Of a DNA stretch of 64,000 nucleotides, positions 10,244-47,393 are shown in pieces. The translations under genes and the position numbers were made by a program. The notes beneath the pieces are model-generated. The model worked only from the letters and a program-made list of their open reading frames with translations. It did not search any database and was not told where the DNA came from. The DNA comes from Escherichia phage O18-011. The stretch lies in sequence record NC_070985.1, one strand, 5' to 3'. Within the stretch, counting starts at the first letter, position 1; each line of letters begins with the position of its first letter.

Positions 10244-10435
10244 ATGGGTAAATTTGATTATCGTTCATATGATGAAAACTCCTCCAATCGCGAATCTCGA
10301 AAAGAGCAGCGTATTAAATATAGTCATGAATTAGGCAATCGCTATATTAAAGAAAAGCGTGAAAAAGTATCACATCGAGTGGATAAGCGTGTATGGGAAG
10401 AAGACGATATGAGTATAGGTTATGGCGAAGGCTGA
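10244..10435 (+). CDS. hypothetical small basic protein
   Basis: ORF track; SD TAAGGA upstream. Confidence 0.4.
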   Translation: MGKFDYRSYDENSSNRESRKEQRIKYSHELGNRYIKEKREKVSHRVDKRVWEEDDMSIGYGEG

Positions 10436-10823
10436 GAAGACTCGCTGTAGTGGAATGTGGACTGAAGCTCGTTATAACTCTTTCATCAAGTCAGGGATTC
10501 GTTCTCTGACTAGAAAGTGGAAGCCCATGTTCGATGCATTAGCAGACGCCAAGACAGAGCAGAAGATTAACCCAAAGACAGGAAGACTGGCAATGCACTT
10601 TAAGTGTGCCATGTGTGGTTCTGACCACCCTGTAAAGGATATGGCTATTGACCACATAGAGCCTATAGTTCCTCTTGACCATGAAGCAACTTGGGATGAA
10701 ATCATCTCTCGTGCCCTGTGTGAGAAAGAGGGTTTTCAGGTTCTATGTAAAGACCCTTGTCATAAACTAAAAACAAAGATGGAAAATGATGCAAGAAAAC
10801 AATTCAAAAAAGGAAATGAATGA
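10422..10823 (+). CDS. HNH endonuclease (terminase-associated type)
   Basis: CAMCGSDHPVKDMAIDHIEPIV...CKDPCHKLKT (Cys pairs flanking H-N-H core); lies next to, and convergent with, large terminase. Confidence 0.6.
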   Translation: MAKAEKTRCSGMWTEARYNSFIKSGIRSLTRKWKPMFDALADAKTEQKINPKTGRLAMHFKCAMCGSDHPVKDMAIDHIEPIVPLDHEATWDEIISRALCEKEGFQVLCKDPCHKLKTKMENDARKQFKKGNE

Positions 10824-10849: not shown

Positions 10850-12391
10850 TTAGTAGCTCTGATTCCATCTGCTTACGTTTGCCTCATATAAAGAAGCACT
10901 TCCGTAGCTAACATCATGCTTAGAGCGACCACGATGTGTAACAGAGCACGCTGAATAGCGCATTGCATCCATTAAGTCATCATGTTCTTTAATAATCTTA
11001 CCAACCTTACGGTGATATCTAGCTTTCTCTTCGAATAGCTTAGCGTTAGCGGCTGTGTTAAAGACTTTAAAGCGTCCACTCATCATTCTTTCTCGGATAT
11101 CTGTGATTCCCGGTTCTACAAAGAAGTTCTTTTTACCATCCATTCCAATTTTGTTGTAGAAGGTCTCACTCTGTACGTTAACTCCTGCATTCTTATAGAA
11201 TTGAGCAACAGATGAACCACTACCTTTCTCAGTATTGTCCGCATCATGCGGTAGGATGACAGGAATCCACTGACCACGACCATTAATAGCTGGAGCATGA
11301 TACACTGGAGTAAAGCCACCTTCTTTATATGAGTCGTAAACATAGATAGTATCCGTGTTTGCATCGTAAGCTGTCCAAACAGCAGCAGTTGGGTGATCGA
11401 TACCAATATCAATTGCACAGACACGTTTCCACGTATCAGGAATTTCGAATGGTTCACATTTAATTGTGTCATCCGATACATCATAAATCAAACCACTTCC
11501 TAACAATGGCATACCTTTTGAACGCATCTCTAACTGCCACGCTGGAATACCTTCAGTCATATCTTTTATATCTTGGTCAGTGATGTGTCCACCTAGGTCT
11601 GCATGAGCATCCCACCAAGAAGCATTCTGGAAATATAGAGAACCTGTGCTCTCATCCCCTTCACCTTTCATAAATTTATCTACCAGTTCAGTTAAACCGT
11701 TCTCTGGTGTAGCTGTAATTGTAACTAGACCTTTAGTTGTGAGTGTACGTGTGACGCACTGTGCGAATATAGCCATAGACTCGTATGGATCTTCTTCGTC
11801 TAACCAAATGTAGTCAACTGTTGCACCCATCAATGTGTGTTCACCCTGTTGGGTTGAACGGAATTCTAATGTACTTAAACCGTCAAACTCTCCTCTTTCA
11901 TTTTGATGTTTGATTTGTACGATTTGAAGTTTGTTACCATCTCGTTCTATCGTATCAATGACGATAGCATCACGAGGAATGACACCTGTCCCTAATAAAT
12001 TTGTATCCTTTCCGATAGGTGTACCAAACAATTCCTTTTGCAATACTTTCCTTGTGGAATCCCCTGTAATACCAACTGCCCATGCTAAGATAGGTCTTTT
12101 AAATTTGTATCCTGTCCACCAAGTTGGGTAGCGACCTGTGACATGACAAGCAAACTCGTATGCCTCGCTATAAGATTTACCAACACGGTTCGCTGCACAC
12201 AAGAATCTAAAGCGATGCTTCAATCCTGCTGCATAAAATTTCTTTTGGAAGTCATACGCCTTGAAAGACAAAATCTTATTATACTTCCTCCATTGGTCAC
12301 GCTCTTTCAACATATTCAACAGTGCTTTCTTTTCCTCTACACTAAGATTGTTACCAGTTAGAGCTTCATAAATTTGTTTATCTAATGACAT
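10850..12391 (-). CDS. terminase large subunit
   Basis: 513 aa; Walker A-like AANRVGKS, Walker B-like YIWLDEED, C-terminal nuclease-like region; end of virion gene block. Confidence 0.75.
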   Translation of the reverse strand: MSLDKQIYEALTGNNLSVEEKKALLNMLKERDQWRKYNKILSFKAYDFQKKFYAAGLKHRFRFLCAANRVGKSYSEAYEFACHVTGRYPTWWTGYKFKRPILAWAVGITGDSTRKVLQKELFGTPIGKDTNLLGTGVIPRDAIVIDTIERDGNKLQIVQIKHQNERGEFDGLSTLEFRSTQQGEHTLMGATVDYIWLDEEDPYESMAIFAQCVTRTLTTKGLVTITATPENGLTELVDKFMKGEGDESTGSLYFQNASWWDAHADLGGHITDQDIKDMTEGIPAWQLEMRSKGMPLLGSGLIYDVSDDTIKCEPFEIPDTWKRVCAIDIGIDHPTAAVWTAYDANTDTIYVYDSYKEGGFTPVYHAPAINGRGQWIPVILPHDADNTEKGSGSSVAQFYKNAGVNVQSETFYNKIGMDGKKNFFVEPGITDIRERMMSGRFKVFNTAANAKLFEEKARYHRKVGKIIKEHDDLMDAMRYSACSVTHRGRSKHDVSYGSASLYEANVSRWNQSY

Positions 12392-42752: not shown

Positions 42753-43244
42753 ATGACTAAACCGATGCAGATGATTAATCTGGCAAGTTATGCGCTAGTC
42801 GCCGCGATCGGTGTTAGTGCGCTGGTCACATCTCTTTCTGATAAGGCTATCGCTGGCCCTACTTCTGCAACTAATGCCGCTGATGTTTTCGCTAGTTCCA
42901 TCAATAAAGGTTGGATGATTTGCAACGGTGCGGATAGTGATGGAAGTGCTATTGTGTTAAAAGTGAAATTTAGTAACGTTACCAGTGAAGGCGTTCTCTT
43001 TCAATCTAAGACGTTGGATAATCAGCCTAACAGTGATCTAGTTCTCAAGCGTACTGATAATGATTCTGATATGGTGACGTATGGCACTGTAAAACGTTAC
43101 GAAGACGTTAAAGCTGTAACCAATCTAGTGAGTTATGGCCCGGTTAAAAAGTCGATGATCGCCACCACGGTTTACAATAATGCTGATAATGCTGTTTATA
43201 CCGTTTACATTAATTTAGCCAACTGCATCAAGGCCAGCAAATAA
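42753..43244 (+). CDS. secreted/periplasmic protein, function unknown
   Basis: Signal-peptide-like N-terminus MINLASYALVAAIGVSALVTSLSDKAIA; G/C-richer codons than neighbours. Confidence 0.5.
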   Translation: MTKPMQMINLASYALVAAIGVSALVTSLSDKAIAGPTSATNAADVFASSINKGWMICNGADSDGSAIVLKVKFSNVTSEGVLFQSKTLDNQPNSDLVLKRTDNDSDMVTYGTVKRYEDVKAVTNLVSYGPVKKSMIATTVYNNADNAVYTVYINLANCIKASK

Positions 43245-43271
43245 GTAACCAATTTTCAGGAGTAACAAAAA

Positions 43272-43523
43272 ATGAGTAACAAAGTGATCAAATTATCCAG
43301 CGGTGTTTCTTGTTTTGTTTGTGATACTTTTATCGCGTTCGGCTTAAAAGAAGGTGACGTGATACTTCCTACAGTTGCCTTTTGTTCCATGAGTTTTAGC
43401 GAGGCCAAAAGATGGCTCCAATTGGTGCGCATTGATATTAACCGCGATGACTTTCGTTCAATTTATGTTGACGGTGATTTGTCACTTGCTGGTCTTCTGG
43501 ATTGTGATTTGCCAAAATGGTGA
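43272..43523 (+). CDS. hypothetical protein
   Basis: ORF track; SD AGGAG upstream. Confidence 0.5.
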   Translation: MSNKVIKLSSGVSCFVCDTFIAFGLKEGDVILPTVAFCSMSFSEAKRWLQLVRIDINRDDFRSIYVDGDLSLAGLLDCDLPKW

Positions 43524-43528
43524 TAAAA

Positions 43529-43615
43529 ATGATTCATGATTATTTTTTGCGTTGTTTGTTCGTTGTTACAGTGGCGTTATTCGTCGCTGATATGCTTTAT
43601 TCTTATATCATCTGA
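43529..43615 (+). CDS. small hydrophobic peptide (28 aa)
   Basis: ATG 43529 in the same 15-mer context as 42526; single hydrophobic helix. Confidence 0.25.
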   Translation: MIHDYFLRCLFVVTVALFVADMLYSYII

Positions 43616-43645
43616 CTAGAAGCGTAATGATTTAAAACCTTCCTG

Positions 43646-43675
43646 AAAGCCTCGCCATGAGGCTTTTTTCTTTTC
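43646..43675 (+). terminator. rho-independent terminator
   Basis: AAGCCTC-gccat-GAGGCTT followed by TTTTCTTTTC. Confidence 0.6.
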
Positions 43676-43831
43676 TAAGGTGATTGTATGCCTTACTCCC
43701 TTTTAGCTCGCTGTAGTGCGTTTTAGGCCGCCTATTGTTGCATTATAAGCCGTTTCCTATGGTGTAACGCGTTCGCCCGCTCTTTTATCTTCCCCATAGT
43801 GAAAAAGTTTAAAATATTTTGCTTTACCCTA

Positions 43832-43859
43832 TTGCACCTCATGAAAGTTAGCGTATACT
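43832..43859 (+). promoter_or_regulatory. candidate early promoter P0 (sigma70-like)
   Basis: TTGCAC-16 nt-TATACT with A/T-rich upstream tract; weaker match than P1 and P3. Confidence 0.35.
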
Positions 43860-43907
43860 GATTTTCATCGGGTACGATGTAAAACATACAAGGGCAAGAA
43901 ATTGCCC

Positions 43908-43920
43908 CGCTCTTTAAAAA
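43908..43920 (+). promoter_or_regulatory. boxA-like element 1
   Basis: CGCTCTTTAAAAA; compare lambda nut/rrn boxA consensus CGCTCTT(T)A. Confidence 0.5.
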
Positions 43921-43957
43921 TCAGGCTAGAAAGTGAAAAAAATACTTGAAAAAGTAT

Positions 43958-43985
43958 TTGACAACTGAAAAGCCTAACCTATAAT
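43958..43985 (+). promoter_or_regulatory. early promoter P1 (sigma70 consensus)
   Basis: TTGACA-16 nt-TATAAT, A-rich UP-like tract upstream. Confidence 0.6.
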
Positions 43986-44020
43986 GAGTGTACAAGGTCA
44001 GCGATGACCTAAAAAAATCC

Positions 44021-44033
44021 CGCTCTTTAAAAA
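44021..44033 (+). promoter_or_regulatory. boxA-like element 2
   Basis: CGCTCTTTAAAAA, preceded by hairpin AGGTCA-gcga-TGACCT (43995-44010). Confidence 0.5.
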
Positions 44034-44106
44034 CTTATCGTCTTGCCCTTTCGCATAGAATCAAGCGAGATAAGGGAAGAGAATAAAAGAAGACGATAAA
44101 AAGAGT

Positions 44107-44134
44107 TTGACAAGCTAACACGACGTGTTAAGCT
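44107..44134 (+). promoter_or_regulatory. candidate early promoter P2
   Basis: Perfect -35 TTGACA with A-rich upstream tract; -10 region weak (TAAGCT). Confidence 0.35.
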
Positions 44135-44148
44135 GTAAATGCAGTAAC

Positions 44149-44161
44149 CGCTCTTTAACAA
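44149..44161 (+). promoter_or_regulatory. boxA-like element 3
   Basis: CGCTCTTTAACAA, identical to the E. coli rrn boxA core as I recall it. Confidence 0.55.
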
Positions 44162-44263
44162 TATGAATCATGAGTTAAGCCTTATCGCTTAATCTTCAAT
44201 CAAATAAAGCTGGTTGATATATCCTCCCAATAGCGGGAACGATGAAAAAGATTAAAAAAGTGA

Positions 44264-44292
44264 TTGACGGCGGAAGCAAAATGATTCATAAT
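44264..44292 (+). promoter_or_regulatory. early promoter P3 (sigma70-like)
   Basis: TTGACG-17 nt-CATAAT; downstream ATAATGAGYGTAC shared with P1. Confidence 0.55.
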
Positions 44293-44385
44293 GAGCGTAC
44301 TCACTAAGCAGATCACCGCTTCAGTGAAAAAGCGAAACAACGGCTAACAGTTGCGTAGTGTGAGAAAGCACACTGACAGATTTAC

Positions 44386-44398
44386 CGCTCTTTAATAA
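44386..44398 (+). promoter_or_regulatory. boxA-like element 4
   Basis: CGCTCTTTAATAA, preceded by hairpin GTGTG-agaaag-CACAC. Confidence 0.5.
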
Positions 44399-45222
44399 TT
44401 TAAACATTCCTCTATATCGGTTAAATATGTTTGATGATAATAACCATCGGAAAACATACCAGATAAAACGGCGTAAAACTCCCTAAAACATCAGGGTAAA
44501 CAGTTTTTACAATCCCTTAACTGGAAAAGTCGCCACTGATAAGCGGATTCATTGAGTACACGCAACGGTTTAAGCTAATCGCCCACGGTTAAGGGTAGCG
44601 GCGGCCATCGCTAACAAGGTGCTACAGTGAAAGAAGCTAATCAGGGCAGACAAGTCCGACAAATTAACGCCCAATTGAGGGCGGTGGGGAATGGTTAAAA
44701 GGTGGCAAATTGCTATTTAACAATAAGGTTTAGTGTGAACGTTTACGATGCGAACGGCTTGAGATTCGTCTTACGATGAAAGCACATAGTCGGTTTATGT
44801 AGTAAACTTGCCGAAAGATATAAAACGCCGGAATATTAGGCGGTTAGTGACTTTTTCGCAATAGTATCCCGTAGTGGGCGATGACTAGCGACAAAGAGCT
44901 AATACAAAAGGATAGGCGGGAGCGAAAGCAAAGTAGACGATATTGCCAACGGTTACGATAAAAGTAACTAATTAGAGTTGGACGCACTGCCTTATTGTGA
45001 TGATTGATCATCGCTACGCAATCCGGCTTTATTTATAGCGGAAAATTAAAGCGTACCAGATGAAACATCACGGATAAGGGGGCGGCAAGGTTAACTCCTG
45101 ATAAGACCGCCCCACTTACCTATAAGCGTTTACAGTGAGCGTTTATAGTTAAGTCAATAGTGACTTAAAAGGCTCATAGCGAGCGGGGGCAATAGTGCCC
45201 TTACAATTGAAAGGTGAATATC

Positions 45223-46122
45223 ATGGCTAAAATTTTCAATCTGGTAAAAGAATCTGGCTTTAACGCACTTGCTAACAACATTCGTAGTAATAACGCGGCG
45301 ATTAAACAAGACGTTTCTAATTTTCTGTTAGGGCACTTGCAGCACTTCCGCAGTAACGGTAAAAAGCTGGACGTATTGCAGTCGGCAGTTGATTTTCTGT
45401 TAACCGAACGTTTCCGCGATATGGACGTGATCGCCACTGCAATTACTTTCTTAACTCCCATCAAGTTTAACACCGATGCGGCAAACGGTCGTAAAAAGTG
45501 GATTAATCTGGAAGGTGAAGCGAAAGCGAAAGAAGACGCGAAAGAAGCGCAAATTAAGGCCAAAATGGAACAAAACCGCGCTCGCTGGTCAAACGCTTTC
45601 GAAAACTTTGCTTTAGGTCGTGAAATTGAAGTCGATAATCCTAACTTTTACAAGGGTTGCAATGACAACGTGGCGGCACATCTGCAAATCCCGGCGAAAA
45701 ACAAGGAAGATTTTAACCAAGATATTTACGCTTTAGTTGAACGCTTGAATGCAATCCGTATTGAAGCCAAATTGCTGGCTGATGAGCGCAACGGCGCTAC
45801 CAGTGACAATACCATCGCTTTGAGTGAAGAAGTGGGCAAGGTTAAGAAGTCCTTTGATTCACTCATCAAGAAAGTCACGGCTTCAACGGTAGCGATCTCT
45901 GACGATTATCTGATGAACGCATCAAGCAAGGAGCTGGAATCACTCGATTCATACGCTGATGAAATGGAAAAGACTATTGCAGCTATGCAGGAGAAGTTAG
46001 AAAGTCTGCGCGGTCGTATCTCTTCAACGGTTGCTACCCGTACCGAACAAGCGGCGAAAGAAGAAGAGGAAGAAGTATTGCGCAAGGCAGCTGAAATTAT
46101 GGCGGCACGTCAGGCAGCATAA
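45223..46122 (+). CDS. first early protein, function unknown
   Basis: ATG 45223 after AAAGGTG; Lys/Glu-rich helical protein; followed by strong terminator. Confidence 0.6.
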   Translation: MAKIFNLVKESGFNALANNIRSNNAAIKQDVSNFLLGHLQHFRSNGKKLDVLQSAVDFLLTERFRDMDVIATAITFLTPIKFNTDAANGRKKWINLEGEAKAKEDAKEAQIKAKMEQNRARWSNAFENFALGREIEVDNPNFYKGCNDNVAAHLQIPAKNKEDFNQDIYALVERLNAIRIEAKLLADERNGATSDNTIALSEEVGKVKKSFDSLIKKVTASTVAISDDYLMNASSKELESLDSYADEMEKTIAAMQEKLESLRGRISSTVATRTEQAAKEEEEEVLRKAAEIMAARQAA

Positions 46123-46145
46123 GTAAGACAATTCTAATAAACATG

Positions 46146-46181
46146 AGGCGCTATCTTAACGGGTAGCGCCTTTTCTTTTAT
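46146..46181 (+). terminator. rho-independent terminator
   Basis: AGGCGCTA-loop-TAGCGCCT followed by TTTCTTTTAT. Confidence 0.65.
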
Positions 46182-46233
46182 CAGTGCATTGATTCAGTGC
46201 ATTAATCAAAGAATATAATCAAAGGTGACGATC

Positions 46234-46452
46234 ATGTTAATTACGCATACCACGATTTATCGGAATCTTGTCAACGGTCAACATTACCGACTATCTAAAA
46301 AGTATGGCGTTGAATGTAAATGTGCTATTACCGGTGAATGGTATCCGTCGCCAATGAAGATTGAAACGTTGGAACGTGATGCTGTTAGTTACACTATCAC
46401 GCAAGAAACAACGTTAGGCCGTATCTTGAGAAAGATGGGATTAAGAAAATGA
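46234..46452 (+). CDS. hypothetical small protein
   Basis: ATG 46234, 8 nt after AAAGG; track ORF 46225. Confidence 0.45.
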   Translation: MLITHTTIYRNLVNGQHYRLSKKYGVECKCAITGEWYPSPMKIETLERDAVSYTITQETTLGRILRKMGLRK

Positions 46453-46673
46453 TATTCAGTAGTAATTTTGGTAAGTGTCCTATTTGTGAGAAACATCGCA
46501 GCACGGGAAACCATCGCAAATGTAGTAAGATATTACAGCGACGCCGTGATCACAAGCATTGGGATACTGTACACACTAACCAGCGAAAAGAAGAAGTTAA
46601 AGCAATGGCTGTTAAAGCATCTTTTGCTCAATCCACTCGTATTGAACATCTTCAAAGGTATCAATCACTATGA
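46449..46673 (+). CDS. small basic zinc-ribbon-like protein
   Basis: ORF track; CPIC motif; start overlaps upstream stop. Confidence 0.4.
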   Translation: MIFSSNFGKCPICEKHRSTGNHRKCSKILQRRRDHKHWDTVHTNQRKEEVKAMAVKASFAQSTRIEHLQRYQSL

Positions 46674-46949: not shown

Positions 46950-47393
46950 ATGGCTAAATCTAAAATCAGCATGAAGGGCGGGCGTTGTTTTTCTATCTCT
47001 GAACTGGAGAAAGAGAAGCCAAAGGCAACCAATCACGTCAGTAAGCGTAGTTTAAAACGTCGTGCTGCAAGGGCTGAAGCTGAATCTCATGTTCCTTCTA
47101 GTGTGGCAAAACGTGTAGGCCATCGTGTCCATCGTGCTGATGCGTTATTGTTAGCCGATCATAAACGTTCTTTGTTAAAGAGCGGGGGAGCTAAAACAGA
47201 AGAGGAGAAGAAGTTAGAAATCTTCTGTAATGGTCGCACCCGTGGTAAACAGAAGTTTAAGGGTAGCACGAAAGACCCGCAAGCTTTCCCTAAGACTAGC
47301 CAGTGTGCGCCTGATGTTTTCTACGCAGACAGTAAACATAAATGGGACGTTGAGAAATACATTGACCCCATCAAAGAGGCAAGGGTTAAGTAG
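46950..47393 (+). CDS. basic protein, function unknown
   Basis: ATG 46950 after AAAAAGGAATAAG; Lys/Arg-rich. Confidence 0.5.
   Translation: MAKSKISMKGGRCFSISELEKEKPKATNHVSKRSLKRRAARAEAESHVPSSVAKRVGHRVHRADALLLADHKRSLLKSGGAKTEEEKKLEIFCNGRTRGKQKFKGSTKDPQAFPKTSQCAPDVFYADSKHKWDVEKYIDPIKEARVK

Follow-up and report, generated by a model that had tools for sequence, protein, structure and literature searches.

The RNA signals of the Escherichia coli rRNA (rrn) operons comprise boxB, boxA and boxC, in that order, and are served by the rrn transcription antitermination complex (rrnTAC; NusA, NusB, NusE, NusG, SuhB and S4), which resists Rho and elongates fast. When SuhB is present, the complex lowers termination in vitro at Rho-dependent and intrinsic sites alike (PMC6614801), and it also acts as an RNA chaperone (PMC8632103). 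In rrn leaders a hairpin comes before boxA and boxB is largely dispensable, whereas in lambda nut sites boxA comes before boxB (PMC8632103). A boxA also protects the untranslated transcripts of clustered regularly interspaced short palindromic repeats (CRISPR) from Rho (PMC7665894), and the boxA contexts named in a 2025 review on termination by Rho are rrn, lambda N, hisG and suhB (PMC12360218). Here we describe a cluster of four boxA copies in a 64,000-nucleotide (nt) stretch of Escherichia phage O18-011 (NC_070985.1; this whole stretch is referred to as the window). A first-pass annotation had described the cluster as antitermination signals of "rrn/lambda-nut-type" at the head of the early region. 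We conclude that the copies are probably functional boxA RNA elements of the rrn type, which would recruit host Nus factors independently of an N protein.

To our knowledge, textbook use of boxA and Nus factors by phages is limited to temperate lambdoid phages that encode N, and the lambda boxA is weaker and dependent on N. The put RNA of phage HK022 acts directly on RNA polymerase via two stem-loops and needs neither Nus factors nor boxA; it resembles the present locus as a phage RNA element in early transcripts that would give processive antitermination without a phage protein, but has no known similarity to it in sequence or structure. The phiEco32-like phages are strictly lytic and podovirus-like, and have their own sigma factor, gp36, and an RNA polymerase inhibitor, gp79. 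Early genes of this group are read by the host sigma70 RNA polymerase, and middle and late genes depend on gp36, with the promoter motif tAATGTAtA (PMC8948821). According to the authors of the work on the related phage 7-11, a strategy of antitermination on long early transcripts "remains to be defined" (PMC8948821). Our literature search, outside which two primary phiEco32 papers fell, returned no report of an N-independent rrn-type boxA in a virulent phage, nor of a structured RNA in phiEco32-like phages.

The window belongs to a phiEco32-like (Kuravirus) phage. Its region 43000-46000 is 80-92% identical to about 96 phiEco32-like podophages (Kuravirus, Suseptimavirus; Gordonclarkvirinae), with Escherichia phages 172-1 and NJ01 as the closest matches. 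In phiEco32 (EU330206) the counterpart locus occupies approximately 73.5-74.6 kb of the minus strand. It falls between genes 125 and 124, where approximately 1.95 kb have no annotated coding sequence. A comparable gene-free gap was found in SU7 and every other relative examined.

A cluster of boxA motifs identical to the host rRNA signal

We scanned the window with the published gamma-proteobacterial boxA consensus, GYTCTTTAANA (Baniulyte et al. 2017, PMC5725501), and obtained seven matches against 0.56 expected, a number reached in none of 100 shuffles. Four of the seven sit within 490 nt on one strand. These are the four copies reported by the first-pass annotation, all of which were present on the + strand as CGCTCTTTAA at 43908, 44021, 44149 and 44386, and all of which fit the consensus exactly. 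They share the form CC-GCTCTTTAA-N-AA, where N is A, A, C and T in copies 1-4 and the G of the motif falls at 43909, 44022, 44150 and 44387 (Table 1). The match at 47173 on the - strand (window 47172-47183, exact GCTCTTTAACAA) was rejected as a coding coincidence inside the + strand homologue of phi32_120; the gene encodes SLLKSGG at this point, and a Q for K in phiEco32 breaks the motif. The matches at 10984 and 24138 (GTTCTTTAATA) are antisense to long - strand open reading frames (ORFs) and were likewise ascribed to chance. Because these other three matches are chance occurrences, boxA in the sense orientation is confined to the cluster. A degenerate boxA-like sequence at 43778, which is common to 172-1, EcoN5 and ECBP2 as GCTCTTTTA(T/C)CT, is probably a decayed unit.

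To compare the copies with the host signal we used the rrnH sequences of E. coli MG1655, in which the leader contains ...caaCTGCTCTTTAACAATTTATCAGAC... and the 16S-23S spacer contains ...ttttGCTCTTTAAAAATCTGGATC.... Over 12 nt, the boxA of unit 3 is identical to that of the rrnH leader (GCTCTTTAACAA), and those of units 1 and 2 are identical to that of the spacer (GCTCTTTAAAAA). The identity extends to 14 nt in unit 1, where it takes in the following TC, and one unit of phage SU7 equals the rrn leader over 18 nt (GCTCTTTAACAATTTATC). Both natural E. coli variants, the leader form ...AACAA and the spacer form ...AAAAA, are therefore reproduced by the phage. By sequence, the copies have the optimal rrn form of boxA and not the deviant form of lambda, CGCTCTTA. 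BLAST searches with the cluster and with the leader that follows it gave no similarity in 5,426 E. coli genomes, and there is therefore no sign of recent capture from the host.

Conservation and layout of the boxA units

Conservation was assessed in 25 phages, consisting of 18 close relatives (75 copies) and seven distant ones (20 copies). All 95 copies match the boxA consensus, lie on the sense strand and stand upstream of the gp124 gene. The close relatives carry 3-5 copies per genome, each inside the gene-free gap. Positions that the search pattern left free are also conserved among these 75 copies (C2 in 75/75, A12 in 75/75 and T13 in 66/75), and most have the CC prefix. Only one position varies freely (A in 42, C in 21, T in 11 and G in 1), and this is the position at which the host's two boxAs differ and which is N in the published consensus.

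The surroundings of the motif behave very differently. Modules upstream and downstream of boxA have been swapped between phages while the 12-mer stays exact; unit 3, for example, is preceded by at least five unrelated sequences in different phages, and even the four copies of a single genome stand in unrelated surroundings. The distant loci, which were found through a protein search with the downstream protein (47-70% identity) and contig look-ups, extend this pattern. All seven have a gene-free gap upstream of the gene, of approximately 3 kb where both flanks were recovered, and each holds two or three exact boxAs. All 20 matches are on the sense strand within the gap, and there are none elsewhere in 62.7 kb. 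They lie 42-82 nt behind the best sigma70-like match, mostly one with a TTGACA -35 element, and a hairpin precedes most of them. Because the exact boxA is kept in these phages amid flanks that cannot be aligned to those of the window, the motif itself must be under purifying selection. Four of the distant gaps (L046 1454-4501, L047 1482-4501, L049 1434-4501 and L053 1396-4501) are gene-free over approximately 3 kb, including approximately 1.6 kb before the first boxA that carries no annotation either. We did not find boxA in the right-end 10 kb of Salmonella phage 7-11.

The identification of the motif as boxA, proposed in the first-pass annotation, is thus strongly supported by the identity with host rrn, the restriction to the sense strand and the persistence of 95 copies in 25 phages despite unrelated flanks. 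These same data bear on two other explanations. The copies could be non-functional by-products, either leftovers of duplicated units or short homologies serving only for recombination between promoter modules, in keeping with the evident exchange of flanking modules among phages. However, retention of an exact 12-mer beside unalignable flanks and a neighbouring protein just 47-50% identical requires purifying selection, and the copies of one genome have unrelated flanks; we give this explanation almost no credence. The 12-mer could instead be a DNA-level site, an operator through which a DNA-binding protein of phage or host origin controls the early promoters, as might be supposed for a repeated and exactly conserved motif close to promoters. 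Such a role is very unlikely in view of a motif that is not palindromic and is found on one strand in 95 of 95 cases. Its distance from the -10 element ranges from 14 to approximately 100 nt, with the relation to an RNA hairpin better kept, and it is identical to a host RNA signal down to the single tolerated variable position.

Every boxA copy lies on the strand of the downstream genes and 3' of a predicted sigma70 promoter that ends 15-94 nt before it, the distances from the -10 element given above likewise being measured from promoters predicted from sequence. The earlier claim that each copy follows a sigma70-like promoter was accurate for the two promoters that it had called P1 (12/12 consensus positions) and P3 (10/12), which belong to units 2 and 4; the promoters of the remaining two units are weaker. 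The unit 2 promoter is conserved in relatives as TTGACA-16/17-(T/C)ATAAT, and that of unit 4 is TTGACA or TTGACG-17-CATAAT in all 18 close relatives. In the SU7 clade, unit 3 has TTGACA-16-TAGAAT inside a replaced module.

Hairpins had been noted before two of the copies, and in fact precede all four (folding z-scores of -2.3, -3.0, -1.2 and -1.8 for copies 1-4). The spacing between hairpin and boxA is 1-12 nt in three units and approximately 20 nt in unit 3. The hairpins of units 2 and 4 are backed by covariation. In unit 2, phiEco32, LAMP and L054 have the stem ATTCA..TGAAT where others have AGTCA..TGACT, and the loop varies between GCGA and GTGA. The unit 4 hairpin has three covarying pairs, one of them with four pair types; most distant relatives retain its position and a loop of AGAAAG or GUAGAAAG on stems of unrelated sequence. 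In relatives, the unit 1 hairpin reads GGCAAG-GAAA-CTTGCC, with one base pair moved. The order of elements is therefore hairpin and then boxA, as in rrn (PMC8632103).

Table 1. Features of the boxA cluster and the adjoining early region (window coordinates)
Feature	Position	Strand	Remarks
Degenerate boxA-like fifth copy (CCGCTCTTTTATC)	43778..43790	+	CGCTCTTTTATCT; mismatches at consensus positions 8, 11 and 12
Putative sigma70 promoter, unit 1	43832..43859	+	TTGCAC-16-TATACT, weak -35; TTGCAA-16-TATACT at the same place in ECBP2
Hairpin, unit 1	43892..43907	+	GGGCAA-GAAA-TTGCCC; ends 1 nt before boxA 1, a position like that of rrn boxB
boxA 1	43909..43920	+	GCTCTTTAAAAA; as E. coli rrnH 16S-23S spacer boxA
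sigma70 promoter, unit 2	43958..43985	+	TTGACA-16-TATAAT, 12/12; A-rich tract upstream of -35
Hairpin, unit 2	43996..44009	+	GGTCA-GCGA-TGACC, GNRA loop; 12 nt upstream of boxA 2
boxA 2	44022..44033	+	GCTCTTTAAAAA; long covarying stem directly after
Putative promoter, unit 3	44107..44134	+	TTGACA-16-TAAGCT; consensus -35, weak -10
boxA 3	44150..44161	+	GCTCTTTAACAA; as E. coli rrnH leader boxA
sigma70 promoter, unit 4	44264..44292	+	TTGACG-17-CATAAT, 10/12; A-rich tract upstream of -35
Hairpin, unit 4	44357..44374	+	AGTGTG-AGAAAG-CACACT; 12 nt upstream of boxA 4; conserved purine-rich loop
boxA 4	44387..44398	+	GCTCTTTAATAA; final copy, at 5' edge of structured RNA
Untranslated, highly structured conserved RNA (leader or noncoding RNA), ~830 nt	44399..45222	+	Covariation; no Rfam family
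First early ORF, phi32_124 homologue (gp124), 299 amino acids	45223..46122	+	Always 3' of boxA cluster and RNA
Strong intrinsic terminator	46145..46182	+	After gp124 homologue; first of five in early region

Downstream of boxA the picture is different. We distinguished four unrelated module types after the boxAs, and no hairpin or loop in a fixed register is shared across units or phages. One of these modules contains a long stem right after boxA 2 (TTATCGTCTT...AAGACGATAA, within 44034-44106) with a compensatory change from G-C to A-T among phages. After this stem, AAAAAGAG could pair with the CUCUUU of boxA 2 and is also the A-rich tract of the next promoter; because it could serve both, RNA and promoter constraints may overlap at 44034-44106.

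Because the hairpin comes first, no conserved boxB follows, the boxA has the full rrn consensus and no N-like protein was detected, we class the signals as rrn-type rather than lambda-nut-type. Of the two-part label given in the first-pass annotation, the rrn part is thus retained, and the lambda part, for which the order is reversed and no boxB is conserved after boxA, is not. The same annotation could confirm neither an N-like protein nor a boxB, and we agree on both points, having found no match to an antiterminator family and no shared hairpin after boxA.

The lambda-type alternative nevertheless merits attention. It holds that a phage N-like protein binds the hairpin as a boxB and that an N-type complex reads through the terminators. 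GNRA-type loops (GAAA, GCGA) do adjoin boxA, five intrinsic terminators lie downstream, and two small early proteins are very basic. One of 74 amino acids (46449-46673, +; pI ~10) has an arginine-rich patch, RKCSKILQRRRDHKH, and a CxxC...H...C pattern, and one of 147 amino acids (46950-47393, +; pI ~10) has an arginine-rich patch, SKRSLKRRAARAEAE; both are weak candidates for nucleic-acid-binding or N-like factors, and neither matched any protein family. However, the hairpins stand upstream of boxA, the reverse of lambda nut, and their sequences and loops vary between units and phages, so that there is no single boxB for one protein to bind. The four unrelated modules downstream offer none either, and the boxA itself is the full rrn consensus rather than the weaker, N-dependent form of lambda. 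No match to a Pfam, PHROG or NCBIfam antiterminator family was found for the 7-8 ORFs flanking the cluster, an absence that is not absolute, as N proteins are diverse. We therefore regard lambda-type nut sites as unlikely. The locus resembles the nut sites of lambdoid phages (lambda, P22, phi21) in that a phage boxA would act with host Nus factors early in infection and upstream of terminators. It differs in the reversed order, the full-consensus boxA and the lack of a detected conserved boxB or N homologue, as well as in belonging to a strictly lytic, podovirus-like phage with its own sigma factor.

A structured RNA and the early region behind the cluster

The last boxA is separated from the ATG at 45223 by 824 nt in which the longest + strand ORF is at most 32 codons. 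This stretch is present at full length in 96 of 96 related phage records and measures 870-936 nt in distant relatives. A coding role is incompatible with the scattered 1-nt indels seen among relatives.

We derived a consensus structure with RNAalifold from 18 sequences, which gave 224 pairs, 73 of them with compensatory double changes, and compared it with two controls, one in which pairing partners were slid by 1-3 columns and one of 500 shuffles. Standard pairs filled 98.9% of cells, compared with 34-47% for slid partners and 91.7% for shuffles. Pairs changed on both sides numbered 73, compared with 8-11 and 41.6 ± 3.6, respectively, and cells changed on both sides numbered 305, compared with 13-25 and 84.8. 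None of the 500 shuffles reached the observed value in any of these measures. Because the structure was derived from the same close-relative alignment on which it was scored, we projected it onto the seven distant sequences, which had not been used in deriving it. These keep 67.7% of the pairs, compared with 38-44% in shifted registers, and an intermediate clade keeps 75-81%. The helix 45120-45129/45139-45148 has 68 canonical and 2 non-canonical cells, with double changes in nine of its ten pairs, and some helices are near-perfectly kept through complete sequence turnover in the distant relatives. The RNA also contains conserved loops, such as CAAGGUUAACUCCUGAUAAGA at approximately 45086-45106. 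RNAalifold additionally paired the CUUU of boxA with an AAAG near the ribosome-binding site and the GCUC of boxA with a GAGC at the transcript start; both pairings had zero covariation and were disregarded.

A search of Rfam 15 with the RNA gave no match at gathering score and only noise at E up to 10; the sole gathering-score match in the window was a tRNA. In IMG/VR we found no relatives of the RNA outside the phage lineage, and six new contigs from a pattern scan with AGGTTAAYTYCTGATAAG were rejected as chance matches, having nothing else in common. The RNA headed by boxA therefore looks like a new RNA class. It is like GOLLD and ROOL (PMC12286853) in being a large (~0.6-0.9 kb) and intricate phage noncoding RNA. 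Unlike them, it has a coliphage host range, appears to be continuous with an mRNA and is preceded by boxA, and no Rfam match to either was obtained at E up to 10. Within the RNA, GCTATTTAACAAT (44712-44724, +) is one base off boxA (C4 to A); the structural model has this element base-paired, and its conservation, as TATTTAAYAAT, extends to the distant relatives.

By this analysis, the cluster heads a long untranslated transcript, which is the setting in which boxA matters in rRNA and CRISPR arrays. Its placement at the head of the early region, as proposed in the first-pass annotation, needs one correction, as the + strand genes do not begin with the cluster: it is preceded by two small ORFs (42753-43523) and by a terminator (43645). 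The product of that first ORF, gp124, gave no matches in sequence searches of Pfam, PHROGs, NCBIfam and the Protein Data Bank (PDB). A Foldseek search of the PDB with its AlphaFold model (predicted local distance difference test score of 78.5) gave a best E of 0.57 and no recognisable fold.

Five good intrinsic terminators were found on the + strand of the early region, at 46145, 47475, 47560, 49608 and 53009, in agreement with those listed previously (46146, 47475, 47560, 49610 and 53007). The + strand from 45 to 64 kb yielded no strong sigma70 promoter; the best candidates there scored 10/12, and matches were fewer than in shuffles. The gp36 motif TAATGTATA has five exact matches in the window (848, 7060, 7132, 17091 and 34117, against 0.57 expected), and no exact promoter of this type was found on the + strand between 43 and 64 kb. 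Because no strong internal promoter was found, it seems that transcripts starting in the cluster must span at least 19 kb. The early region also contains a tRNA-Arg(TCT) gene (51182-51257, +).

A possible role in early transcription and occurrence in other viruses

In the mechanism that we propose, each of the four clustered, predicted early promoters has its own boxA downstream, so that every transcript would carry at least one boxA whichever start is used. The transcribed boxA would be bound by host NusB-NusE (S10), with no need for a phage N-like protein, and NusB-NusE would nucleate the rRNA-operon elongation complex with NusA, NusG, SuhB and possibly S4. RNA polymerase modified in this way would be Rho-resistant across the ~830-nt untranslated structured RNA. 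Faster elongation and partial resistance to the five intrinsic terminators in the early operon, which spans at least 19 kb, are also probable, and the complex may act as a chaperone while the large RNA folds. We infer Nus binding, protection from Rho, read-through and chaperoning from the sequence, and the argument from processivity has merit, given five terminators and no strong + strand promoter between 45 and 64 kb.

The resemblance to the E. coli rrn signals goes beyond the same 12-nt boxA in both of its variants. A hairpin lies upstream of boxA, the promoters are strong, tandem and, where A-rich tracts are present, have them above the -35 element, a long structured untranslated RNA follows, and a phage-specific protein is apparently not needed. 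Unlike rrn, where one signal follows tandem promoters, the phage signal occurs in a virulent phage in 2-5 copies, one per promoter, and lacks a boxC-like element; the phage RNA has no relation to rRNA and continues into protein-coding genes. The boxA of CRISPR arrays, found in Salmonella and many other bacteria (Stringer et al. 2020, PMC7665894), is similar in being N-independent and located 5' of a long untranslated transcript. It differs in being host chromosomal and single, and in preceding a repeat-spacer RNA rather than one large folded RNA (PMC7665894).

Several observations weigh against a role of this kind. No boxC-like (GU-rich) element was found after the boxAs among the four downstream module types, boxC being an accessory element that is not required for Nus recruitment. 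Promoters 1 and 3 match the sigma70 consensus weakly. The mean unpaired probability of the boxAs (0.44-0.60) is close to the transcript average (0.43-0.48), a comparison made on equilibrium folding, which tells little about co-transcriptional binding. The leader is 24% G and 19% C and heavily paired, and C exceeds G in the first ~150 nt only; because it is G-rich and heavily paired, it may be a poor substrate for Rho even without boxA. Furthermore, boxA can act negatively, as in suhB and hisG (PMC12360218).

The number of copies could also be read in another way, as a sponge in which multi-copy boxA RNA mainly withdraws NusB, NusE and SuhB from the rrn operons of the host and thereby helps to shut the host off, any effect on the phage's own transcription being secondary. 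A transcript from the first promoter would carry 4-5 consensus boxAs where one elongation complex should need only one, and the promoters are strong and clustered. However, one boxA per promoter is more simply accounted for if each transcript needs one, some distant relatives keep just two copies, and the constant place directly before a long untranslated RNA points to a role in cis. We consider a sponge improbable. Neither this nor any other alternative fits the strand restriction, the identity to the host signal, the variable promoter distance and the deep conservation as well as recruitment of Nus factors to the phage's own transcripts.

A broader version of that proposal is that the locus mimics an rRNA operon, in which strong rrn-like promoters, hairpin and boxA drive a new class of multi-domain phage RNA of 830-940 nt. 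Made and folded by the host complex, this RNA would be more than a leader and would itself serve, for example, in host takeover, in a ribonucleoprotein with the adjacent gp124 or in priming replication, and boxA use without N would reach further phages as well. We put this forward tentatively, as somewhat less likely than the reverse.

If boxA acts as proposed, a virulent family well studied for its transcription appears to use the host rRNA elongation machinery by means of copies of the host signal alone. Such use would explain the survival of long sigma70-driven early transcripts in the face of Rho and terminators. It also predicts a dependency on host nusB, nusE and suhB, which is relevant to phage therapy because many Kuraviruses are under development against avian pathogenic and uropathogenic E. 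coli. Independently of boxA, a large and deeply conserved structured RNA is present in approximately 100 sequenced coliphages in a region routinely annotated as empty; such RNAs are rare, and the present one occurs in the tractable E. coli system.

We also scanned IMG/VR for two boxAs 100-130 nt apart. Apart from three cases, the matches were rejected as low-complexity sequence or coding coincidences, and an nhmmer search with the RNA profile against the other paired-boxA viral contigs gave no homology. A resemblance between gp124 and a protein of one of them, L040, was not established (E = 0.14). The three cases hint at a wider phage use of N-independent boxA ahead of untranslated transcripts. 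In a 180-kb phage contig (L036, IMGVR_UViG_3300048694_001005), a boxA pair at 10327-10462 lies inside a 24-gene, same-strand tRNA array. A GC-rich viral contig (L043) has paired boxAs at 978-1102. In an unrelated phage represented by L040 (pair at 1286-1417) and L042, a hairpin precedes the first boxA, and approximately 800 nt without an ORF extend before AGGTGAATAACATG.

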